The position numbers and the translations under genes are program-made. 64,000 nt of DNA, taken from Escherichia coli (GTDB lineage: Bacteria > Pseudomonadota > Gammaproteobacteria > Enterobacterales > Enterobacteriaceae). The DNA lies in the NCBI RefSeq assembly GCF_003334385.1, contig NZ_QOWN01000011.1. The stretch is one strand, 5' to 3'. Below the pieces are notes generated by a model. It saw only the letters and a list, made by a program, of their open reading frames with translations, was not told the origin of the DNA and searched no databases. This document shows positions 1 through 39,726 of the stretch, piece by piece. Within the stretch, counting starts at the first letter, position 1. Every line of letters starts with the position of its first letter.

Positions 1-384
1 CAGGTCGTCCACCACCAGAACTTTGTCGCCCGGTTTGATGGCATCAACGTGGATCTCCAGCTGATCGGTGCCGTATTCCAGGTCGTAAGTTTCACTGATG
101 GTTTCACGCGGCAGTTTGCCCGGTTTACGGACCGGTACAAAGCCAACGCCCAGACCCAGAGCTACCGGAGCGCCAAACAAGAAGCCACGCGCTTCGGTGC
201 CGACAACTTTGGTAATGCCCGCATTTTTGTAACGCTCAACCAGCAAGTCGATGCTGAGAGCGTAAGCTTTCGGGTCTTCCAGTAAGCTGGTGACATCGCG
301 GAAAAGAATGCCGGGTTTTGGGTAGTCCTGAATGCTTTTGATGCTATTTTTGAGATACTCAAGCTGCTGTGCAGTCGCGGTCAT
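1..384 (-). CDS. apt: adenine phosphoribosyltransferase (first 128 codons; 3' end lies beyond window start)
   Basis: Reverse-strand translation from ATG at 382-384 reads [41 protein letters not shown]..., matching E. coli Apt; frame stays open to position 1, which is why it is absent from the ORF track. Confidence 0.9.
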
Positions 385-536
385 AAGTGTATGCCTGCTT
401 GTTACGGTGGTACTCACGGCGCGTTTTAAACGTATCAAAAGTAACAGTTGTTTAACCTTTGACCGCCTGCGCCTGTGCTCGAAAACGCCAGAATGTACTG
501 GCTGTACGCAATAATTGCAACTGCGATTGTTGTGCT

Positions 537-914
537 TCAGTGCTTTTCTTGCTTTTCATCAATCACCGGAATTCGCCACATATAGAAAAGCAAACAGGCG
601 AGAATTACCAGCAACATGATGCGCACCCATGGCATCTGGACGAACCACAGAGAAATGGCAAACGTGAGCAAAATAAGCAAAATCGCCCGCGGTTTGACGC
701 CGCGCGGCATCGCATGATGTTTCTGCCAGAAACGTAGATAGCTGCCAAACCATGAGCGGTACAGCAACCAGGCGTGAAAGCGCGGGGAAGAACGGGCAAA
801 GCACCAGGCCGCCAGCAGGATAAACGGCGTCGTCGGTAATACCGGTAATACCACGCCCAGCGTACCCAGCACTACCGCCAGCCAGCCAATGATGATTAAA
901 ATGATTCGTTGCAT
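537..914 (-). CDS. ybaN: inner-membrane protein YbaN (DUF454)
   Basis: 125-aa [23 protein letters not shown]...; full-length match to E. coli YbaN; hydrophobic helices. Confidence 0.92.
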
Positions 915-983
915 ATTGAGTGTTGTCAGCTTACAGAGTGGCTACTTTAGCATAACAATTATCATTTTCATTGAGGTCTTATC

Positions 984-1511
984 GTGAAAACCGCCCTGCT
1001 GCTGGAAAAACTGGAAGGACAGCTCGCTACGCTGCGTCAGCGTTGTGCCCCGGTGTCACAGTTCGCCACGCTAAGTGCTCGTTTCGACAGGCATCTTTTT
1101 CAGACTCGTGCGACAACACTACAGGCTTGTCTCGACGAGGCGGGCGATAATCTGGCTGCGCTTCGTCATGCAGTTGAGCAGCAACAGCTGCCGCAAGTGG
1201 CCTGGCTGGCGGAACATCTGGCGGCACAACTGGAAGCCATCGCGCGTGAAGCCTCCGCCTGGTCATTGCGCGAGTGGGACAGTGCACCACCGAAAATTGC
1301 CCGCTGGCAGCGTAAACGTATTCAGCATCAGGATTTTGAGCGGCGGCTACGTGAGATGGTTGCCGAACGCAGAGCCCGTCTGGCGCGGGTGACCGATCTC
1401 GTGGAACAGCAAACGCTGCATCGTGAAGTGGAAGCCTATGAAGCGCGCCTGGCACGCTGCCGCCATGCGCTGGAAAAAATCGAAAACAGGTTAGCGCGTT
1501 TAACCCGCTAG
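984..1511 (+). CDS. priC: primosomal replication protein N'' (PriC)
   Basis: 175-aa [30 protein letters not shown]... with GTG start at 984; matches E. coli PriC. Confidence 0.93.
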
Positions 1512-1524
1512 CAATGGAGAGAAT

Positions 1525-1686
1525 ATGTCACTGGAAAATGCCCCTGACGATGTCAAACTGGCTGTCGATTTGATTGTGCTGCTGGAGGAAAATCAGATCC
1601 CTGCCAGTACCGTGCTGCGCGCGCTGGATATTGTAAAGCGTGATTATGAAAAGAAATTAACGCGCGATGATGAGGCGGAAAAGTGA
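1525..1686 (+). CDS. ybaM: small protein YbaM (DUF2496), 53 aa
   Basis: ATG at 1525, TGA at 1684-1686; hand translation [53 protein letters not shown]; below the 60-aa cutoff of the ORF track; sits 14 nt after the priC stop as in E. coli. Confidence 0.85.
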
Positions 1687-1739
1687 GAAATAAATGGGGT
1701 CGCTAAATGTCCCCTAAGGTTGCGGGCAAACGCAAAACT

Positions 1740-1848
1740 GCCTGATGCGCTACGCTTATCAGGCCTACACCGCTCCTGCAATATATTGAATTCTTGCGGT
1801 TTCGTAGGCCGGATAAGGCGGTCACGCCGCATCCGGCATGAACAACGC
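1740..1848. repeat. BIME: two inverted REP palindromic units
   Basis: gcctgatgcgctacgcttatcaggcctac (1740-1768) and gtaggccggataaggcggtcacgccgcatccggca (1804-1848) between convergent ybaM and mscK; classic REP consensus. Confidence 0.85.
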
Positions 1849-1867
1849 GCACTTTGTTAGCAATCTC

Positions 1868-1899
1868 GGGGCAACTAAATGTTGCCCCCTTTCGTTTTT
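1868..1899 (+). terminator. putative intrinsic terminator for priC-ybaM
   Basis: hairpin ggggcaac-taaat-gttgcccc followed by ctttcgttttt; T-run overlaps the mscK stop codon on the other strand. Confidence 0.5.
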
Positions 1900-4800
1900 A
1901 CCCTACCGCTGGCGTCGGGTCATCGCCTTTGTAGTCGCGTTTTACTTCCGTCACCTCATCGCCCTTCTCGTTGTGCAGATGCACTTCAAGCTGGTTAAAG
2001 GCAATGTTGATGTCGTTTTCACGGCACAGCTGATCGATAGTACGGTTCAGCTCATCGACAGTACGACTACGGTCACGCAGTTCACGCACATACAGACGCA
2101 GCTCATGATCCAACGTGCTGGCACCAAATGCCGTAAAGAAGACTTCCGGCATTGGTTCGTGCATCACCCTTGGGTGCTCAGTCGCCGCCTTCAGTAACAC
2201 TTTACGCACTTTTTCCAGATCGGAGCCATAGGCCACGCCGAGACGGATCACCAGACGCGTAGTAGTGTCAGTCAACGACCAGTTGATCAGACGCTCGGTA
2301 ACAAACGCTTTGTTCGGGATGATCACTTCTTTGCGATCGAAATCGGTAATCGTTGTCGCACGAATACGGATCTTACTTACCGTCCCCGAGAAGCTACCAA
2401 TGGTTACCGTATCGCCAATACGCACCGGACGTTCGAATAGAATGATCAAACCGGAGACGAAGTTACCGAAAATTTCTTGTAAACCAAAACCAAGACCTAC
2501 GGATAATGCTGCGGCCAGCCACTGGAGTTTATCCCAAGAGACGCCCAGCGATCCGAACACCGTCATCGCACCAACAGCAATAATGATGTAGTTAAGGATG
2601 GTAGTAATGGCATACGACGCGCCCTGGCGCATATTCAGTCGCGAGAGCACCAGCACTTCCAGTAAACCAGGCAGGTTGCGAATCAACGCCCAGGCCACCA
2701 TTGAGGCGATAATCGCAAACAACAGACTGCCCATGGTGACGTTTTTCACCACCGCAGCGCCAGCTTCAGTGCCGTTGTAATGCCAGAGCGTGATGCTGTC
2801 GAGATAGCTGAACACGGTGATCAAATCGGACCAAATTGCCCAGAACATGACACCGAACAGCGCAAACATCAGCAACATGGTAATACGCAGCGTCTGCTGG
2901 TTAACTTGCTCCAGTGCAATGGTGGGTTCTTCCGGCGGTTCAGCACCTTCTGCGCCCTCTTTCACCAGATTCTGCCGACGCGCCAGCGCACGACGCCAGG
3001 CGATACGCCGCGCCGCTACGCTTAAGCCACGCAGTACCGTCTGGTACAGCAGGTTCCAGATGATCACCAGATAAACGGTTTCAATCCAGCGTCCTGCCAG
3101 ACGCAGCGTAGTGTAGAAGTAGCCTGTAGCAGTCAGCACCATCAGCGCAATCGGGATTATCGACAGCACGGTAATGGTGACCAGTCGCATGGTGTGCGAC
3201 TCTTTATCACGCCAGCTTTCGCGGCACATCGGCCATACCAGGAAGGCAATCAGCAGCAGGTTGAAGAAAATCATCGCTTGCCCCAGCACATCATCCATCA
3301 GATGCAGCGGGGAAAGTTCTGCCACCACAGACCAGAAATGGATAGGCAGCAATGCGAGACTGATGCGGACAATTTGCCGACGCCAGTGGCTGGTCTGCTG
3401 TTCCGGCATGCCGAAGTGACGTACGGCAACGCCGTTTTTCTCCAGTACCTTCCAGCACAGGCCAAACACCAGCCAGAATATCGCCAGTTTTTTGCTGAAC
3501 GACCATAGCAGTTCGCTGATGTTGAGCTGCATGGTCAACAGAATCAGGCCAACCGCGAGAATAATCAGGCACACCGGCAGCGCACGGATCAGGTCGATAA
3601 GGATCGCTTTTGGTGTGTTGAGCTGGCTGTCGTTACGCAGGGAACCCACAGCGGAAGCCAGTTTTTGTTGATACGCTTTCAGCCAGCCCAGACGCCAGTG
3701 GATCAGCCCGGCAATCAACAGCAGCGGCAAACCAGCGAGGAAAGCGATAAAAACGGCGGGCCAGGCTTTTTGCCAGTTCACCGTGATTTTCATCGACTTA
3801 AATTCATCTTTCAGGCTTTGCGGGAACGCTTTGATCCAGTCCCAGTCCATTGGACGGTTACTGTTCACCCAAAAGATTTGCTGAGTCAGGATGGATTTCA
3901 GGTTTTTCGACACACTCATTAACTGCTGCTGGTTGATTTGCAGGTTAATGGCCATCATCAGCTGGTTACCCAACTGTTTGTTGAGTTGATCCAGCAATTC
4001 GCGACGCATATCAACCACTTGCAATAACGCATCGTGAACTTCGCTGTTGACTTCGTTGGTGTGACCTTCTTCCAGTTTGTTGACGAACGCATCGCTCTGG
4101 AAGAGTGCATCACGCTGCTGGTTAACTTCAAACTGTTCGAGACGCAAATCCGCGATGCGGTTGGTCATGTTTTCCAGTTCATCCGCCGAGGGCAGCGTTT
4201 GTTGTTGCTGGTAAAGGATACGAGACAACAGCAGGCTGCCCTTCAGGACGGCAATCTGCTCTTTAATATTGCGTTCCGATTGCAGCGCCCGCTCCAGCCA
4301 GTTTTTGACTTTAATGTTTTGCTGCATCAACTGATTACCGTTTTCAGTCGCGGTAATCAGACGCTGACTTAACTGCTGGTTAATTTCCAGTTCCTGCTTC
4401 ACCAGCGGATTAGCCTGAATACGCGCGGCTTCATCCGGGGAGACGGCTTCCTGCGCCGTTTTTTCGGTTAAAGTCAGGCGCTTGCTGTTTACCGCTTCTT
4501 GCAACAGTTGTAACTGGTGCTCCAGACGAGCGCTGTTCGCCGTCACGTAATCACGTTGCTTTTGCAAGGTATCCTGCAAGACGGTGTTCCCTTCCAGGCT
4601 TTTACGCTGCTGGTCAATCTCCGCATTCAGCAACGCCTGCTGGGCCTGCATTAACACTTTCTGGCTGGGACGTAAGGCTGTCTCGCCGACATCAGTCCCA
4701 TCCAGACGACTGCGAATTTGTTGCAGCTGCTGCGAAGCGTTATACATCGCATTTTGCACGCGTTCGGGCTGCGTCTGTAACGAAACCAGCTGGCTGTTAT

Positions 4801-5260
4801 AAGACGCCAGATCGTTTTGTGCGTTTTGCAAATCGTCCAGCGCCTGGGCAACGCGAGTTTCCAGCTGGCGCAACGACAGCGTGCTCAGAATTTTGCGCGT
4901 TTCTTCGTCGTTATCGACATCGCTAAGTGCTGTTAACGCCGCGGTCGCCTGGCGCATTTTTTCCGGCGCTTCAGCGACTTTTTGCCGTAGCTGAACTGTC
5001 TCTTCTTTTATGCGATCGATTTTATCGAGGGTGGCTAATGTATCTGTCAGATCCTGCTGCACCAGTTTGTCCTGAGCAGAAAGATCTTTTTGTTTATTTA
5101 GTGAGTCAAGTTGCGCCTGCAGGTCCGCTTTTGTCGGCAGATCACCATTCGATGACGCCCGCGCAAACGCCGTGTTCTGGCATAACAAGACAAAAACAAA
5201 AGCAATAAATGCTGAAAAAACAAAATGCCGTGATCGTTTGTAATACTGGAACATAGTCAT
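1898..5260 (-). CDS. mscK: potassium-dependent mechanosensitive channel MscK (KefA)
   Basis: 1120-aa ORF MTMFQYYKRSRHFVFSAFIAFVFVLL...; length and sequence match E. coli MscK; N-terminal coiled-coil region and C-terminal MscS-like domain. Confidence 0.95.
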   Translation of the reverse strand: MTMFQYYKRSRHFVFSAFIAFVFVLLCQNTAFARASSNGDLPTKADLQAQLDSLNKQKDLSAQDKLVQQDLTDTLATLDKIDRIKEETVQLRQKVAEAPEKMRQATAALTALSDVDNDEETRKILSTLSLRQLETRVAQALDDLQNAQNDLASYNSQLVSLQTQPERVQNAMYNASQQLQQIRSRLDGTDVGETALRPSQKVLMQAQQALLNAEIDQQRKSLEGNTVLQDTLQKQRDYVTANSARLEHQLQLLQEAVNSKRLTLTEKTAQEAVSPDEAARIQANPLVKQELEINQQLSQRLITATENGNQLMQQNIKVKNWLERALQSERNIKEQIAVLKGSLLLSRILYQQQQTLPSADELENMTNRIADLRLEQFEVNQQRDALFQSDAFVNKLEEGHTNEVNSEVHDALLQVVDMRRELLDQLNKQLGNQLMMAINLQINQQQLMSVSKNLKSILTQQIFWVNSNRPMDWDWIKAFPQSLKDEFKSMKITVNWQKAWPAVFIAFLAGLPLLLIAGLIHWRLGWLKAYQQKLASAVGSLRNDSQLNTPKAILIDLIRALPVCLIILAVGLILLTMQLNISELLWSFSKKLAIFWLVFGLCWKVLEKNGVAVRHFGMPEQQTSHWRRQIVRISLALLPIHFWSVVAELSPLHLMDDVLGQAMIFFNLLLIAFLVWPMCRESWRDKESHTMRLVTITVLSIIPIALMVLTATGYFYTTLRLAGRWIETVYLVIIWNLLYQTVLRGLSVAARRIAWRRALARRQNLVKEGAEGAEPPEEPTIALEQVNQQTLRITMLLMFALFGVMFWAIWSDLITVFSYLDSITLWHYNGTEAGAAVVKNVTMGSLLFAIIASMVAWALIRNLPGLLEVLVLSRLNMRQGASYAITTILNYIIIAVGAMTVFGSLGVSWDKLQWLAAALSVGLGFGLQEIFGNFVSGLIILFERPVRIGDTVTIGSFSGTVSKIRIRATTITDFDRKEVIIPNKAFVTERLINWSLTDTTTRLVIRLGVAYGSDLEKVRKVLLKAATEHPRVMHEPMPEVFFTAFGASTLDHELRLYVRELRDRSRTVDELNRTIDQLCRENDINIAFNQLEVHLHNEKGDEVTEVKRDYKGDDPTPAVG

Positions 5261-5387
5261 GATGAATGAAGGTTTCTGAACCTGAAGAACGACCTGAAAA
5301 AGTCAAACCGCAAGAATATCACGACGCAGTGAACCAGAATAGCAACGACGAAAATGTCCAGGAAAAATCCTGGAGTCAGATTCAGGG

Positions 5388-6035
5388 TTATTCGTTAGTG
5401 GCAGGATTACGAAGCGTGGGGCACAGGAGATACATCTCCAGTAAGATGGCAACGTAATCGCGGGCTTCTTTTTTAAGATCAAAAGATTGCGGGGCAAAGA
5501 GCCAGTTTTCCATCAGGCCGGAAATATAGCCGCGCATAATAATTGCTGCGCGACGCGTCATTAAATCCGCAGGCAACATTTTCGCTTCAATACAATGTTT
5601 TAACGTTTGTTCTATACGGTCATAACTTTCCAGACAGAGATTACGTTGTGCCTGTTGCACAACAGCCATTTCTCCGACAAATTCGCATTTGTGGAATATA
5701 ATCTCCATCAATAATCGACGCCGTTCTTCTGTCACCGTGGATTCAAGAACATGAATTAATATCTCTCTTAATACTGAGAGTGGATCGCCAGGGAATTTTG
5801 CCTGATACTCAAGCTCTAGTTCACCAATATTGGATTCTGACAGTTCCCAGATCTCACTGAACAAATCCGACTTGTCTTTAAAATGCCAGTAGATTGCACC
5901 GCGCGTAACGCCAGCTGCTTTTGCAATCTCGCCCAGCGAGGTGGATGATACCCCCTGCTGTGAGAAAAGACGTAGAGCCACATCGAGGATGTGTTGGCGC
6001 GTTTCTTGCGCTTCTTGTTTGGTTTTTCGTGCCAT
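5388..6035 (-). CDS. acrR: TetR-family repressor of acrAB
   Basis: 215-aa [55 protein letters not shown]...; matches E. coli AcrR; divergent from acrA. Confidence 0.96.
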
Positions 6036-6063
6036 ATGTTCGTGAATTTACAGGCGTTAGATT

Positions 6064-6087
6064 TACATACATTTGTGAATGTATGTA
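6064..6087. promoter_or_regulatory. AcrR operator (24-bp inverted repeat) in the acrR-acrA divergent promoter region
   Basis: tacatacatttgtgaatgtatgta read directly at 6064-6087: 10-bp arms tacatacatt / aatgtatgta around a 4-bp centre; identical to the AcrR operator as I recall it. Confidence 0.85.
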
Positions 6088-6176
6088 CCATAGCACGACG
6101 ATAATATAAACGCAGCAATGGGTTTATTAACTTTTGACCATTGACCAATTTGAAATCGGACACTCGAGGTTTACAT

Positions 6177-7370
6177 ATGAACAAAAACAGAGGGTTTACG
6201 CCTCTGGCGGTCGTTCTGATGCTCTCAGGCAGCTTAGCCCTAACAGGATGTGACGACAAACAGGCCCAACAAGGTGGCCAGCAGATGCCCGCCGTTGGCG
6301 TAGTAACAGTCAAAACTGAACCTCTGCAGATCACAACCGAGCTTCCGGGTCGCACCAGTGCCTACCGGATCGCAGAAGTTCGTCCTCAAGTTAGCGGGAT
6401 TATCCTGAAGCGTAATTTCAAAGAAGGTAGCGACATCGAAGCAGGTGTCTCTCTCTATCAGATTGATCCTGCGACCTATCAGGCGACATACGACAGTGCG
6501 AAAGGTGATCTGGCGAAAGCCCAGGCTGCAGCCAATATCGCGCAATTGACGGTGAATCGTTATCAGAAACTGCTCGGTACTCAGTACATCAGTAAGCAAG
6601 AGTACGATCAGGCTCTGGCTGATGCGCAACAGGCGAATGCTGCGGTAACTGCGGCGAAAGCTGCCGTTGAAACTGCGCGGATCAATCTGGCTTACACCAA
6701 AGTCACCTCTCCGATTAGCGGTCGCATTGGTAAGTCGAACGTGACGGAAGGCGCATTGGTACAGAACGGTCAGGCGACTGCGCTGGCAACCGTGCAGCAA
6801 CTTGATCCGATCTACGTTGATGTGACCCAGTCCAGCAACGACTTCCTGCGCCTGAAACAGGAACTGGCGAATGGCACGCTGAAACAAGAGAACGGCAAAG
6901 CCAAAGTGTCACTGATCACCAGTGACGGCATTAAGTTCCCGCAGGACGGTACGCTGGAATTCTCTGACGTTACCGTTGATCAGACCACTGGGTCTATCAC
7001 CCTACGCGCTATCTTCCCGAACCCGGATCACACTCTGCTGCCGGGTATGTTCGTGCGCGCACGTCTGGAAGAAGGGCTTAATCCAAACGCTATTTTAGTC
7101 CCGCAACAGGGCGTAACCCGTACGCCGCGTGGCGATGCCACCGTACTGGTAGTTGGCGCGGATGACAAAGTGGAAACCCGTCCGATCGTTGCAAGCCAGG
7201 CTATTGGCGATAAGTGGCTGGTGACAGAAGGTCTGAAAGCAGGCGATCGCGTAGTAATAAGTGGGCTGCAGAAAGTGCGTCCTGGTGTCCAGGTAAAAGC
7301 ACAAGAAGTTACCGCTGATAATAACCAGCAAGCCGCAAGCGGTGCTCAGCCTGAACAGTCCAAGTCTTAA
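6177..7370 (+). CDS. acrA: multidrug efflux periplasmic adaptor subunit AcrA
   Basis: 397 aa from ATG at 6177 (MNKNRGFTPLAVVLMLSGSLALTGC lipobox); the track ORF starts 12 codons upstream, which I rejected; matches E. coli AcrA. Confidence 0.96.
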   Translation: MNKNRGFTPLAVVLMLSGSLALTGCDDKQAQQGGQQMPAVGVVTVKTEPLQITTELPGRTSAYRIAEVRPQVSGIILKRNFKEGSDIEAGVSLYQIDPATYQATYDSAKGDLAKAQAAANIAQLTVNRYQKLLGTQYISKQEYDQALADAQQANAAVTAAKAAVETARINLAYTKVTSPISGRIGKSNVTEGALVQNGQATALATVQQLDPIYVDVTQSSNDFLRLKQELANGTLKQENGKAKVSLITSDGIKFPQDGTLEFSDVTVDQTTGSITLRAIFPNPDHTLLPGMFVRARLEEGLNPNAILVPQQGVTRTPRGDATVLVVGADDKVETRPIVASQAIGDKWLVTEGLKAGDRVVISGLQKVRPGVQVKAQEVTADNNQQAASGAQPEQSKS

Positions 7371-7389
7371 CTTAAACAGGAGCCGTTAA

Positions 7390-10542
<3,153 letters not shown>

Positions 10543-10560
10543 TACAACGTGTAATCACTA

Positions 10561-10583
10561 AGGCCGCGTAAGCGGCCTTTTTT
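10561..10583 (+). terminator. intrinsic terminator of acrAB
   Basis: aggccgc-gtaa-gcggcct hairpin then T5, 19 nt after the acrB stop. Confidence 0.75.
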
Positions 10584-11087
10584 ATGCATAACCTACGAAC
10601 ATTAAGGAGTAATTGAACCACCAACTCAGGATCTCATACGAAAACCAGTATTAACCACGGATAAAATTCATAAAAAATACTGATTGTTAGTTAATTTATA
10701 TTAAGTAGCGCTAATAGATTTAATAATCCATAATCATTTAGAGGCTATTCTTAATTATTTGCGGTAATTCTTTATTCATTCCTCGGTTATTACGTCATAT
10801 TCAGAGCAATCCTGGTATTAGTGTCACCAATTTCATCTGGCGATAATCCTGAAATGTTATGAATAGTTCGAGCAAACTGCTTTTACCTGCTGCGGGTTAG
10901 TGCTAGTATGAAAAAGTGAGTCCTGTCCCGCTTCCTTCCTAATTGTAATTTTTCGTAATAATGCGATGAAAACCTGCAAAGAGTGGCTTATAGTTAAGCT
11001 AACAAACGAGAGGGCAAGTCCAGGTCAGTAAGTTTTTTCCATCCCGAAAGGTGTCCGTTAGTTCAACCGCTAAGAAGGGGACGCGTT

Positions 11088-11462
11088 ATGGATGAATACT
11101 CACCCAAAAGACATGATATCGCACAGCTTAAGTTTCTCTGTGAAACCCTGTATCATGACTGCCTTGCAAACCTTGAAGAAAGCAATCATGGCTGGGTAAA
11201 CGACCCAACCTCGGCGATCAACCTCCAGTTGAATGAACTGATTGAGCATATTGCGACCTTCGCACTTAATTACAAAATTAAGTATAATGAAGACAATAAG
11301 CTCATTGAGCAGATCGACGAATATCTGGATGACACCTTTATGTTGTTCAGTAGTTATGGTATTAATATGCAGGATCTTCAGAAATGGCGGAAGTCAGGTA
11401 ATCGACTATTCCGTTGTTTTGTCAATGCGACGAAAGAGAATCCTGCGAGTTTATCTTGTTAG
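11088..11462 (+). CDS. tomB: Hha toxicity modulator TomB (YbaJ)
   Basis: 124-aa [39 protein letters not shown]...; matches E. coli TomB; preceded by AAGAAGGGG ribosome-binding site. Confidence 0.94.
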
Positions 11463-11487
11463 AATTATTACAACCATAGGTAGAAGT

Positions 11488-11706
11488 ATGTCCGAAAAAC
11501 CTTTAACGAAAACCGATTATTTAATGCGTTTACGTCGTTGCCAGACAATTGACACGCTGGAGCGTGTTATCGAGAAAAATAAATACGAATTATCAGATAA
11601 TGAACTGGCGGTATTTTACTCAGCCGCAGATCACCGCCTCGCCGAATTGACCATGAATAAACTGTACGACAAGATCCCTTCCTCAGTATGGAAATTTATT
11701 CGCTAA
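11488..11706 (+). CDS. hha: haemolysin expression modulator Hha (H-NS co-regulator)
   Basis: 72 aa from ATG at 11488: [72 protein letters not shown]; this is the C-terminal part of the 154-aa track ORF. Confidence 0.94.
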
Positions 11707-11877
11707 TAAATAATTCGCTTTCGGAGCTATAACCGGCTGTTTATTAAGAATTTTATACTTTTTCGCCATGAAGACATACCCTATGTGATCTTTATCACAC
11801 AGATGTAATGGGAACGTTCTCTTCACTGACTTTTCGTCTTACTGTGTTGCCGCATTTTCAGCAACCGGAGGTCAGTA

Positions 11878-12429
11878 ATGAGCACAGAAAAAGAAAAGAT
11901 GATTGCTGGTGAGTTGTATCGCTCGGCAGATGAGACGTTATCTCGCGATCGCCTGCGCGCTCGTCAGCTTATTCACCGATACAATCATTCCCTGGCGGAA
12001 GAGCACACATTACGCCAGCAAATTCTCGCTGATCTATTCGGTCAGGTGACAGAGGCTTATATTGAGCCAACGTTTCGCTGTGACTATGGCTATAACATTT
12101 TTCTCGGTAATAATTTTTTCGCCAACTTCGATTGCGTGATGCTTGATGTCTGCCCTATTCGCATCGGTGATAACTGTATGTTGGCACCAGGCGTTCATAT
12201 CTACACGGCAACACATCCCATCGACCCTGTAGCACGTAATAGCGGTGCTGAACTGGGGAAACCCGTCACCATCGGTAATAACGTCTGGATTGGCGGACGC
12301 GCGGTCATTAACCCTGGTGTGACCATTGGTGATAACGTCGTGGTAGCCTCAGGTGCAGTTGTCACAAAAGATGTCCCGGACAACGTTGTCGTGGGCGGTA
12401 ATCCAGCCAGAATAATTAAAAAATTGTAA
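11878..12429 (+). CDS. maa: maltose O-acetyltransferase
   Basis: 183-aa ORF with hexapeptide-repeat left-handed beta-helix signature; matches E. coli Maa. Confidence 0.93.
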
Positions 12430-13178: not shown

Positions 13179-14729
13179 GTGAGAACACGACATCTGGTCG
13201 GCCTTATTTCGGGAGTACTGATTCTTTCAGTATTGCTGCCTGTCGGCTTAAGCATCTGGCTGGCCCATCAGCAGGTAGAAACATCGTTTATTGAAGAGCT
13301 GGATACCTATTCCTCCCGCGTCGCTATTCGAGCCAATAAGGTGGCGACACAAGGGAAAGATGCGCTGCAGGAGCTGGAAAGATGGCAAGGCGCTGCCTGT
13401 AGCGAAGCCCATCTCATGGAAATGCGTCGGGTATCTTACAGTTATCGCTATATTCAGGAAGTGGCTTATATCGATAACAACGTTCCCCAGTGTTCGTCTC
13501 TGGAGCATGAAAGTCCGCCCGATACCTTCCCCGAGCCAGGTAAAATTTCGAAAGATGGTTATCGTGTCTGGTTAACATCGCATAACGATTTAGGCATTAT
13601 CCGTTACATGGTCGCCATGGGAACGGCACATTATGTCGTCATGATCGACCCCGCTTCCTTTATTGATGTCATTCCCTATAGCTCATGGCAAATTGATGCC
13701 GCCATTATTGGCAATGCCCATAACGTTGTCATAACCAGCAGCGATGAAATTGCTCAGGGAATTATTACCAGGCTACAAAAAACACCCGGTGAGCATATCG
13801 AAAATAATGGAATCATTTACGATATCCTGCCCTTACCGGAGATGAATATTTCGATCATCACATGGGCTTCAACGAAAATGTTGCAGAAAGGCTGGCATCG
13901 GCAAGTCTTTATTTGGTTACCGCTCGGGTTGGTGATTGGCCTGCTGGCAGCGATGTTTGTGCTGCGTATTTTGCGCCGTATTCAGTCACCGCATCATCGG
14001 CTGCAGGATGCTATCGAAAATCGTGATATTTGCGTGCACTATCAGCCGATTGTCTCCTTAGCCAATGGCAAAATTGTCGGTGCTGAGGCACTGGCGCGCT
14101 GGCCGCAGACAGACGGTAGTTGGTTGTCACCAGATAGTTTTATTCCGCTGGCACAGCAAACGGGCCTTTCTGAGCCATTGACGCTACTGATTATAAGAAG
14201 CGTCTTTGAAGATATGGGCGACTGGCTGCGTCAGCATCCACAGCAGCATATTTCGATCAATCTTGAATCCCCCGTGCTCACCTCGGAAAAAATCCCGCAA
14301 TTGCTGCGTGACATGATCAATCACTATCAGGTTAATCCCAGACAGATCGCGCTTGAACTCACTGAACGCGAGTTTGCCGATCCGAAAACCAGCGCCCCGA
14401 TAATTTCTCGCTACCGGGAGGCGGGCCATGAAATTTATCTTGATGATTTTGGTACGGGGTATTCAAGTTTAAGTTATTTACAGGATCTGGATGTCGACAT
14501 TCTGAAGCTCGATAAATCTTTCGTTGATGCGCTGGAATATAAAAATGTCACGCCGCATATCATCGAAATGGCAAAAACACTGAAACTGAAAATGGTAGCG
14601 GAGGGAATCGAAACCAGTAAACAAGAAGAGTGGTTACGCCAGCATGGCGTGCACTACGGTCAGGGCTGGCTCTACAGCAAGGCATTACCGAAAGAAGATT
14701 TCTTACGCTGGGCCGAGCAACATTTGTGA
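13179..14729 (+). CDS. pdeB: cyclic-di-GMP phosphodiesterase PdeB (YlaB), CSS-domain plus EAL domain
   Basis: EAL-domain C-terminus (DDFGTGYSSLSYL, KLDKSFV); start placed at GTG 13179 (516 aa, good spacing from AAGGA), though ATG at 13173 is an alternative. Confidence 0.85.
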   Translation: MRTRHLVGLISGVLILSVLLPVGLSIWLAHQQVETSFIEELDTYSSRVAIRANKVATQGKDALQELERWQGAACSEAHLMEMRRVSYSYRYIQEVAYIDNNVPQCSSLEHESPPDTFPEPGKISKDGYRVWLTSHNDLGIIRYMVAMGTAHYVVMIDPASFIDVIPYSSWQIDAAIIGNAHNVVITSSDEIAQGIITRLQKTPGEHIENNGIIYDILPLPEMNISIITWASTKMLQKGWHRQVFIWLPLGLVIGLLAAMFVLRILRRIQSPHHRLQDAIENRDICVHYQPIVSLANGKIVGAEALARWPQTDGSWLSPDSFIPLAQQTGLSEPLTLLIIRSVFEDMGDWLRQHPQQHISINLESPVLTSEKIPQLLRDMINHYQVNPRQIALELTEREFADPKTSAPIISRYREAGHEIYLDDFGTGYSSLSYLQDLDVDILKLDKSFVDALEYKNVTPHIIEMAKTLKLKMVAEGIETSKQEEWLRQHGVHYGQGWLYSKALPKEDFLRWAEQHL

Positions 14730-15234: not shown

Positions 15235-15348
15235 GGGTGGGGGCCCTGCCAGCTACATCCCGGCACACGCGTCATCTGCCTTGGCTGCTTCCTTCCGGAC
15301 CTGACCTGGTAAACAGAGTAGCGTTGCGGGAGAACCAACAGAGCCCCC
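15235..15348 (-). ncRNA. ffs: 4.5S RNA, the RNA component of the signal recognition particle
   Basis: Reverse complement of 15235-15348 reads GGGGGCUCUGUUGGUUCUCCCGCAACGCUACUCUGUUUACCAGGUCAGGUCCGGAAGGAAGCAGCCAAGGCAGAUGACGCGUGUGCCGGGAUGUAGCUGGCAGGGCCCCCACCC (114 nt), identical to E. coli 4.5S RNA as I recall it. Confidence 0.93.
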
Positions 15349-30553: not shown

Positions 30554-32908
30554 CTATTTTGCAGTCACAACCTGCATACCAGACGGTTCATTTTGCAGCG
30601 CCAGAGTCAGAACTTCCTCAATGCGCTTCACAGGATGAATGTCCAGATCGGCAATTACGTTGTCAGGAATCTCTTCCAGATCGCGTTTATTTTCGAACGG
30701 AATTAGCACTGTTTTAATCCCGCCGCGATGCGCTGCCAGGAGTTTTTCTTTCAAACCACCGATCGGCAGTACCTGACCACGCAGAGTGATCTCACCGGTC
30801 ATTGCCACATCGGCACGAACCGGGTTACCGGTCAGGCAAGAAACCAGCGCGGTGCACATAGCAATACCGGCACTCGGACCATCTTTCGGCGTCGCACCTT
30901 CCGGTACGTGGACGTGGATGTCACGTTTTTCGTAAAAATCAGGGTTGATCCCCAGTTTTTCCGCACGCGCACGAACCACCGTTAACGCCGCCTGAATGGA
31001 CTCCTGCATCACTTCGCCGAGCGAACCGGTATAGGTCAGTTTGCCTTTACCCGGAACACATGCGGTTTCAATGGTCAGCAAGTCACCGCCCACTTCCGTC
31101 CACGCCAGACCGGTTACCTGACCGACACGGTTTTCGTTATCCGCGCGACCATAGTCGAAACGCTGAACACCGAGATAGTCATGCAGGTTATCGCCGTTAA
31201 TTTCGATATGTTTTAATGACTTATCGAGCAGTAACTGCTTAACCGCTTTGCGACACAGTTTGGAGATTTCACGCTCCAGACCACGCACGCCCGCCTCACG
31301 GGTGTAGTAACGAATAATGCCGATAATGGCGCTATCGTCGACGGTCAGCTCACCTTTTTTCAGTGCATTACGTTCAATCTGCTTCGGCAGCAGGTGACGT
31401 TTGGCGATGTTCAGTTTTTCATCTTCGGTATAACCGGAGAGGCGAATCACTTCCATACGATCCAGCAGCGGTGCCGGAATGTTCATGGAGTTCGACGTCG
31501 CGACAAACATCACGTCGCTGAGATCGTAATCCACTTCCAGGTAGTGGTCGCTGAACGCTACGTTCTGCTCTGGATCCAGCACTTCAAGCAGTGCAGAGGC
31601 CGGATCGCCACGCATGTCAGAAGACATTTTGTCGATCTCATCGAGCAGGAACAGCGGGTTTTTCACGCCCACTTTCGCCATTTTCTGGATCAGTTTACCC
31701 GGCATAGAACCGATGTAAGTACGGCGGTGACCACGGATTTCCGCTTCATCACGCACGCCGCCCAGCGCCATACGGACATATTTACGCCCGGTGGCTTTGG
31801 CAATGGACTGACCAAGAGAGGTTTTACCTACCCCCGGCGGCCCTACCAGGCAGAGGATCGGTCCCTTGATTTTGTTGACACGGCTTTGAACCGCAAGATA
31901 CTCAAGGATTCGATCTTTCACGCGCTCCAGACCATAATGGTCGGTATCAAGGATTTCCTGCGCCTGACGCAGGTCTTTTTTGACCTTGCTACGCGCATTC
32001 CACGGCACCTGTACCATCCAGTCGATATAACCACGCACTACGGTCGCTTCTGCCGACATCGGAGACATCATTTTCAGCTTCTGCAACTCTGCTTCCGCTT
32101 TCTCTTTTGCCTCTTTCGGCATCTTCGCCGCGTCGATTTTGCGCTTCAGGGCTTCGTTTTCGTCCGGCGCGTCGTCCATTTCACCGAGTTCTTTCTGAAT
32201 AGCTTTCATTTGCTCGTTCAGATAGTACTCACGCTGGGATTTCTCCATCTGCTTTTTAACGCGGTTGCGAATGCGTTTCTCAACCTGCAGCAGATCGATT
32301 TCCGATTCCATCATTGCCATCAGATATTCCAGACGTTCGTTAACGTCGGACATCTCCAGAACAGACTGTTTGTCAGCCAGTTTCAGCGGCATATGTGCAG
32401 CAATGGTATCCGCCAGACGCGCCGGATCGTCGATGCTATTCAGCGACGTCAGCACTTCTGGTGGGATTTTTTTGTTCAGCTTGATGTAGCCTTCGAACTG
32501 GCTGATTGCAGTACGCACCAGCACTTCCTGTTCCCGCTCATCAATGGTCGGCGACTCCAGATACTCCGCCTTCGCAGAAAAGTGTTCGCCATTGTCAGAG
32601 AGCGCAGAAATACGCGCGCGCTGTAACCCCTCGACCAGCACTTTGACGGTGCCGTCAGGCAGTTTCAGCATCTGCAATATAGAGGCCACGGTCCCGACGG
32701 TGAAAAGATCGTTTACACCCGGCTCATCCGTTGAAGCTTCTTTCTGCGCGACCAGCATAATTTTTTTATCATGGTCCATCGCCGCTTCCAGACAACGGAT
32801 AGATTTTTCCCGCCCGACAAATAAGGGGATGACCATGTGCGGATAAACCACCACATCGCGCAGCGGCAATACGGGGATTTCAATGCGTTCAGAACGCTCA
32901 GGATTCAT
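30554..32908 (-). CDS. lon: ATP-dependent Lon protease
   Basis: 784 aa from ATG at 32906-32908 ([38 protein letters not shown]...); Walker [10 protein letters not shown]; the 799-aa track ORF has a 15-codon extension that I rejected. Confidence 0.96.
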
Positions 32909-32990
32909 AGAGCTCTCTCTTAGTTTAATTTCCGCCAGGTAATCAGATGACACGACTGTGCTTCACGCCATCTATTAACATGTACGTCAG

Positions 32991-33018
32991 TATATGGGGA
33001 TGTTTCCCCCACATTCAA
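32991..33018 (-). promoter_or_regulatory. sigma32-type heat-shock promoter of lon
   Basis: Minus strand reads TTGAAT-13nt-CCCCATAT, matching the sigma32 consensus (CTTGAA ... CCCCATNT), about 80 nt upstream of the lon ATG. Confidence 0.65.
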
Positions 33019-33095
33019 CGCCGAGAATAGAGGAAAAATTAAAGGGGAGATAAAATCCCCCCTTTTTGGTTAACTAATTGTATGGGAATGGTTAA

Positions 33096-38250: not shown

Positions 38251-39726
38251 ATGTCCAGTCAATATTTACGTATTTTTCAACAGCCGCGTTCAGCCATATT
38301 GCTGATCCTGGGTTTTGCTTCCGGGCTACCGCTCGCCCTGACATCCGGTACCTTACAGGCCTGGATGACGGTCGAGAATATTGATCTCAAAACCATTGGT
38401 TTCTTCTCTCTGGTAGGCCAGGCTTACGTTTTTAAATTCCTCTGGTCACCGCTGATGGACCGCTACACGCCTCCATTTTTTGGGCGGCGACGCGGTTGGC
38501 TGCTCGCCACGCAAATCCTGTTATTAGTCGCCATTGCGGCGATGGGTTTTCTCGAACCAGGCACCCAACTCCGCTGGATGGCGGCGCTGGCGGTGGTGAT
38601 CGCTTTTTGCTCTGCCTCCCAGGATATTGTCTTCGATGCGTGGAAAACCGATGTGCTCCCGGCAGAAGAACGTGGTGCGGGCGCGGCAATCAGCGTTCTG
38701 GGTTACCGTTTAGGGATGCTGGTTTCCGGCGGCCTAGCCCTGTGGCTGGCAGATAAATGGCTGGGCTGGCAGGGCATGTACTGGTTGATGGCGGCGCTGT
38801 TGATCCCCTGTATTATCGCGACGTTGCTTGCACCAGAACCGACCGACACCATTCCTGTGCCAAAAACGCTGGAACAAGCGGTTGTTGCACCTCTGCGAGA
38901 TTTCTTTGGTCGCAATAATGCCTGGCTTATTTTGCTTCTTATCGTGCTGTATAAGCTGGGCGACGCATTCGCCATGAGCCTGACAACCACGTTTTTGATT
39001 CGCGGCGTCGGGTTTGATGCGGGTGAAGTAGGCGTGGTTAACAAAACGCTTGGCTTACTAGCGACCATTGTTGGCGCATTGTACGGTGGGATTTTGATGC
39101 AGCGCCTGTCACTGTTCCGGGCACTGCTGATTTTCGGCATTTTACAAGGTGCGTCTAACGCCGGTTACTGGCTGCTGTCGATTACTGATAAGCATCTCTA
39201 CAGCATGGGCGCAGCCGTCTTTTTCGAAAACCTCTGTGGCGGGATGGGCACATCAGCCTTTGTCGCGCTGTTAATGACGCTATGTAATAAGTCATTTTCC
39301 GCTACTCAATTTGCCCTGCTCTCAGCGCTTTCTGCTGTAGGGCGAGTTTATGTCGGCCCCGTGGCGGGTTGGTTTGTTGAAGCACACGGCTGGTCGACAT
39401 TCTATCTATTCTCCGTCGCCGCTGCCGTACCAGGGCTTATTTTGCTGCTGGTTTGCCGCCAGACGCTTGAATATACACGAGTAAATGACAACTTTATCTC
39501 CCGTACCGCATATCCGGCAGGTTATGCCTTTGCCATGTGGACACTGGCGGCGGGCGTCAGCCTGTTGGCCGTGTGGTTACTGCTATTGACGATGGACGCG
39601 CTGGATTTGACGCACTTCTCTTTCCTGCCTGCTCTGCTGGAAGTCGGGGTTTTAGTCGCCCTTTCTGGCGTCGTGCTTGGTGGTTTGCTGGATTATCTGG
39701 CGCTACGAAAAACGCATCTGACGTAA
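38251..39726 (+). CDS. ampG: muropeptide (anhydromuropeptide) permease AmpG, MFS
   Basis: 491-aa ORF MSSQYLRIFQQPRSAILLILGFASGLPLALTSGTLQAWMTVENIDLKTIGFF...; matches E. coli AmpG. Confidence 0.95.
   Translation: MSSQYLRIFQQPRSAILLILGFASGLPLALTSGTLQAWMTVENIDLKTIGFFSLVGQAYVFKFLWSPLMDRYTPPFFGRRRGWLLATQILLLVAIAAMGFLEPGTQLRWMAALAVVIAFCSASQDIVFDAWKTDVLPAEERGAGAAISVLGYRLGMLVSGGLALWLADKWLGWQGMYWLMAALLIPCIIATLLAPEPTDTIPVPKTLEQAVVAPLRDFFGRNNAWLILLLIVLYKLGDAFAMSLTTTFLIRGVGFDAGEVGVVNKTLGLLATIVGALYGGILMQRLSLFRALLIFGILQGASNAGYWLLSITDKHLYSMGAAVFFENLCGGMGTSAFVALLMTLCNKSFSATQFALLSALSAVGRVYVGPVAGWFVEAHGWSTFYLFSVAAAVPGLILLLVCRQTLEYTRVNDNFISRTAYPAGYAFAMWTLAAGVSLLAVWLLLLTMDALDLTHFSFLPALLEVGVLVALSGVVLGGLLDYLALRKTHLT

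Follow-up and report, generated by a model that had tools for sequence, protein, structure and literature searches.

TtgR, MtrR, NalD and SmeT are examples of repressors that act locally on an efflux pump by binding to a palindrome in its promoter. The closest described system to the locus studied here is the AcrR operator of acrAB in Escherichia coli K-12, a 24-bp site consisting of two 10-bp inverted repeats with 4 bp between them, located where acrR and acrA lie 141 bp apart (PMC10597343, PMC9769551); both papers credit the site to Su et al. 2007. Purified AcrR shifts an acrAB promoter fragment in EMSA, and its binding is prevented by ethidium, putrescine, cadaverine and spermidine (PMC10597343, PMC9769551), while deletion of acrR strongly increases acrAB promoter activity (PMC9769551). 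The same region carries a binding site for global activators, the marbox (consensus of Martin et al. 1999; PMC11642870), which lies within acrR's first 21 nt and is required for MarA, SoxS or Rob to act as activators (Worley et al. 2024, PMC11642870); binding of MarA, SoxS or Rob to the K-12 marbox sequence, which is identical in the genome analysed here, was observed by EMSA (PMC11633057). Full resistance needs the loss of AcrR together with a retained marbox and MarA, SoxS or Rob (PMC11642870).

We compared this system with the acrAB locus found in a 64,000-nucleotide stretch of E. coli DNA (hereafter the window). This locus shares with K-12 all 24 bases of the operator, its 10+4+10 layout, the 141-bp gap and the genes on either side. 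There is no difference at the locus, but the host genome differs, carrying 22 SNPs relative to K-12 in the first 50 kb of the window, which rules out that the window is K-12 itself. In this genome the main multidrug efflux pump thus retains an intact, reference-identical local switch in AcrR, a result of small practical value.

The AcrR operator and its divergent genes

The gene acrR occupies positions 5388-6035 on the minus strand and is an intact open reading frame, whose translation gives a TetR-family local repressor of 215 codons plus stop, confirming the full-length acrR described in the initial annotation. Its DNA is identical to that of K-12 acrR (WP_000101737.1). The deduced AcrR scored 419.3 bits over residues 1-214 against the NCBIfam AcrR equivalog NF007949 (cutoff 271) and matched the solved AcrR structures PDB 2qop/3bcg over residues 1-215 (E=1.6e-141), the next-best relatives with solved structures being TtgR, MtrR and NalD (E=2e-44, 2e-32 and 2e-29, respectively). 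On the plus strand, acrA (6177-7370, with coordinates matching the K-12 annotation) encodes the periplasmic adaptor of the pump and acrB (7393-10542) the RND transporter.

The start codons of the divergent acrR and acrA are separated by a 141-bp interval (6036-6176), the same distance as published. Within this interval, positions 6064-6087 read TACATACATTTGTGAATGTATGTA, the AcrR operator or AcrR-binding site of the acrAB promoter, and acrR starts 28 bp to the left of it and is transcribed divergently. The left 10-bp arm TACATACATT (6064-6073) and the right 10-bp arm AATGTATGTA (6078-6087) are 100% complementary to each other and flank a 4-bp spacer, TGTG (6074-6077). The initial annotation had called the whole element a palindrome free of substitutions; the exact 24 bp is indeed present and equal to that of K-12, whereas the symmetry belongs to the 10-nt arms only, the TGTG spacer being non-palindromic and the whole 24 bp not a full palindrome.

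TACATACATTTGTGAATGTATGTA occurs once in the 64-kb window, even with up to 3 mismatches allowed, and none of 100 dinucleotide-preserving shuffles yielded a match; a chance origin of the match was ruled out by these shuffles and by the exact identity to the published site. The 24-bp element is almost certainly the operator for AcrR, the TetR-family repressor encoded beside it, and no observation spoke against this explanation. It is a textbook site of regulation, already known and here in its reference form.

Putative promoter elements, the marbox and the predicted control of acrAB

A consensus scan for promoter elements on the plus strand found a -35-like hexamer, TTTACA (6062-6067), overlapping the left arm of the operator, and a -10-like hexamer, TACCAT (6086-6091), overlapping the right arm. 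This pair, the putative acrAB promoter, has an 18-nt spacer and 9 of 12 consensus matches. The operator fills the gap between the two predicted hexamers and overlaps both, from which it is predicted that AcrR, once bound, denies RNA polymerase access to the promoter. Such promoter occlusion would be the classic arrangement, as the placement of the consensus hexamers suggests.

The proposed mechanism follows from this geometry. Each 10-bp arm would serve as one AcrR half-site, and AcrR seated on the operator would, through promoter occlusion, restrict acrAB to modest basal expression, probably limiting the expression of acrR itself at the same time. Ligands such as ethidium, putrescine or cadaverine, on binding to the C-terminal domain of AcrR, would release the repressor from DNA and induce acrAB. 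The marbox at the start of acrR would give MarA, SoxS or Rob an independent route to activation of the acrAB promoter. AcrR binding, promoter occlusion, ligand release and the exact transcription start are inferred here or taken from the literature, binding and release having been published for identical K-12 DNA.

The mar/sox/rob box ATGGCACGAAAAACCAAACA is located at 6016-6035 on the minus strand, 26 bp upstream of the -35-like hexamer, where it covers the start codon and the first codons of acrR. It fits every defined position of the marbox consensus AYnGCACnnWnnRYYAAAYn, so that both the consensus fit and the placement within acrR are those of the described acrAB marbox. The only match to the marbox consensus (AYNGCACNNWNNRYYAAAYN) in the window is ATGGCACGAAAAACCAAAC (core 6017-6035, minus strand), where 0.06 matches are expected by chance. 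The marbox, whose state the initial annotation had left to be looked at, is therefore present and intact. In contrast to the AcrR operator, from which it is separated by 28 bp, the marbox is an activator site. Both control layers are intact at the locus, one being the local repressor and its operator, the other the site for global activators.

Identity to K-12 and variation among E. coli genomes

The window was compared base by base and without gaps with the K-12 reference MG1655 (NZ_CP032667.1). No difference was found in positions 1-12200, and the stretch free of differences extends through position 14507, taking in mscK, acrR and acrA with the region between these two, acrB and tomB/hha. 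The first 50 kb is colinear with K-12 and differs from it at 22 positions, the earliest at 14508. acrR, acrA, acrB, mscK and lon each show 0 nucleotide differences from K-12, and hence no amino-acid changes. L34 and R45 of AcrR, the sites of reported derepressing substitutions, are unchanged relative to K-12; L34Q is described in PMC11642870, and a substitution at R45 is named in the title of Webber et al. 2005. The segment 5380-6200 (821 bp) is 100% identical in K-12 MG1655, C600, J53 and many other strains.

The initial annotation had proposed that this copy of the efflux locus is wild-type and repressible, a proposal that missense changes in AcrR or base changes in the operator would have contradicted. 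Aligned with K-12, acrR, the operator and the region upstream of acrA contained 0 nucleotide differences and AcrR 0 amino-acid differences. The reading as wild-type holds at the level of sequence, from which the locus would also be predicted to be repressible.

The output of acrAB is influenced as well by marR, soxR and rob, three genes located outside the window. With the local AcrR switch intact, efflux-based resistance would have to stem from regulators outside the window. The AcrR-operator circuit could thus be intact and the pump still overexpressed, through lesions in marR, soxR or rob or in the turnover of MarA and SoxS, in which case the description as wild-type and repressible would mislead on phenotype. 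In favour of this, the intact marbox leaves the promoter open to MarA, SoxS or Rob, the effects of activation and de-repression are additive (PMC11642870), and marR, soxR and rob are not among the genes of the 64-kb window. However, lon, whose product is a protease reported to degrade MarA (review PMC7355843), is in the window and K-12-identical, just 22 differences from K-12 over the first 50 kb suggest a close relative of commensal or laboratory-like type, and no positive evidence was found for a lesion in any unlinked regulator. We consider overexpression by this route quite improbable for this genome, and retain the reading of an intact, AcrR-repressible locus.

To describe variation within the species, a 30-mer query consisting of the operator and 3 bases on each side was searched against complete E. 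coli genomes, a query that scores only through an exact 28-base word spanning the whole operator. The 30-mer was found exactly in 5383 of 5426 complete genomes (99.2%), so that an intact operator is the overwhelming norm in E. coli; 20 further complete genomes have TATG as the spacer between unchanged arms. Of the 5424 E. coli genomes that possess the 141-bp intergenic region, 5420 match it at 99% identity or more. IS1 insertions split acrR in at least 9 complete E. coli genomes, several of them among the best acrR matches, and in one E. coli genome an element of the IS481 family at the edge of the intergenic region removes the 21 bp nearest to acrR.

Operator lesions are rare, and the common lesions are in acrR itself, IS1 insertions being an example. 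The statement in the initial annotation that acrR or operator lesions are often seen in multidrug-resistant isolates needs dividing accordingly: lesions of acrR do occur, through IS1, whereas the near-universal exact operator speaks against frequent operator lesions. The 99.2% figure is a useful baseline for the screening of isolates. Since the operator is nearly invariant, attention in such screening belongs to acrR coding lesions and IS insertions and not to the operator.

Several further features of the window were recorded during the comparison. The first 25 kb is 100% identical in several non-K-12 strains, e.g. O157:H16 98-3133, A14 and NCTC9041. Of the 22 positions at which the first 50 kb departs from K-12, 11 cluster within 480 bp of ampG (38382-38862); all 11 are synonymous, and the cluster resembles a short recombination patch. 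Single amino-acid differences from K-12 are present in PdeB (I444L, position 14508), YbaY (S104P, 16108), MdlA (L352Q, 21871), CyoA (P200A, 40783) and YajR (V280L, 45967). The K-12-identical lon lies at 30554-32908, and Rfam placed the sRNA sraA at 32980-33075 on the plus strand, just upstream of lon. The 4.5S (small SRP) RNA gene ffs was located at 15244-15340 on the minus strand by Rfam and by the K-12 annotation.

Operator arms and flanking sequence in other species

A scan for TACATACATT-N4-AATGTATGTA with one genome per species returned at least 120 loci; chosen for exact arms, these loci show the context of the site and the freedom of the spacer, and do not give an unbiased rate of arm conservation. 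Among the 120 loci listed, 114 have a divergent AcrR homologue that begins no more than 150 nt from the site, and in 62 of them its start is exactly 29 nt away. In the loci listed, an AcrA homologue is found on the opposite side of the site, usually about 90 nt off, and the AcrR homologues beside the exact arms are 35-99% identical to AcrR. Among those below 50% identity, the N-terminal 60 residues, which form the DNA-binding head, are about 66% identical and the remainder 27%. The spacer takes at least 20 different tetranucleotides among the loci listed, including TGTG (36 loci), TATG (28) and CGCG (14). This variety of 20 sequences fits arms that are the recognised half-sites and a spacer that is a mere ruler.

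Six of the 120 loci listed, Thomasclavelia and Clostridium included, have no adjacent AcrR N-terminus; chance occurrence in an A/T-rich genome, or a sequence cut short of the neighbouring gene, may account for them. Outside Enterobacterales, exact arms beside AcrR and AcrA homologues were observed in Aeromonas and in several Betaproteobacteria, for example Acidovorax, Comamonas, Ottowia, Polaromonas and Silvimonas, the AcrR homologues there being 35-45% identical.

The inverted repeat, with its perfect 10-bp arms, could also form a hairpin, and given minus-strand promoter-like sites upstream, at 6130-6101, the acrR mRNA might include the operator. On these grounds the main role of the palindrome might be that of a hairpin in the leader transcript of acrR, with a 10-bp stem and a 4-nt loop, that alters the stability or translation of the acrR mRNA. 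Against this, binding of AcrR to operator DNA in vitro is published (PMC10597343, PMC9769551). The arms, moreover, keep the same letters in the loci found across species, where a pure RNA stem could vary by compensatory change, an argument that carries little weight alone because exact arms were the basis on which these loci were chosen. The stem is rich in A/T, and no T-run follows it on either strand. A role mainly as a hairpin is very unlikely in light of these points, and recognition of the arms as DNA by AcrR remains the preferred reading.

EnvR (AcrS), the regulator of acrEF, is a TetR-family paralogue and a reported repressor of acrAB. That the operator is chiefly the target of such a paralogue, with AcrR secondary, is hardly credible: the score of AcrR against the acrEF/envCD regulator model (179 bits) indicates that the DNA-binding heads of the paralogues are related, but the cognate neighbour is acrR in nearly all of the species loci listed, at a fixed distance, and acrAB promoter activity rises strongly on deletion of acrR (PMC9769551).

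Conservation to the right of the AcrR operator was assessed among 71 Enterobacterales species listed. CCATAGCACG (6088-6097) is mostly at least 90% conserved in these species, with position 6096 (50 of 71) as the exception. The 71 loci were chosen by the presence of CCAT at 6088-6091, which makes its invariance (71 of 71) uninformative. AAACGCAGCAATGGGTTT (6109-6125) is at least 86% conserved throughout in the 71 species listed, and at least 90% conserved except at 6125 (61 of 71). Rfam gave no family at the conserved block 6088-6127 at the gathering threshold, and the searchable literature yielded neither a match to the sequence of the block nor a described element that would account for it. 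A structured RNA in the acrA leader was rejected as the explanation for 6106-6127, the fold of 6098-6185 being no stabler than that of shuffled sequences (z = -0.54). The block may simply be sequence of the acrR promoter or the acrA leader. It is a tentative and rather unlikely suggestion that the block could represent an undescribed regulatory site of the acrA leader or acrR promoter. Equally tentative is the suggestion, drawn from the exact arms in Aeromonas and Betaproteobacteria, of one operator-repressor pair unusually frozen across two proteobacterial classes. The AAACGCAGCAATGGGTTT block belongs to an imperfect palindrome, ATAAACGCA/TGGGTTTAT.
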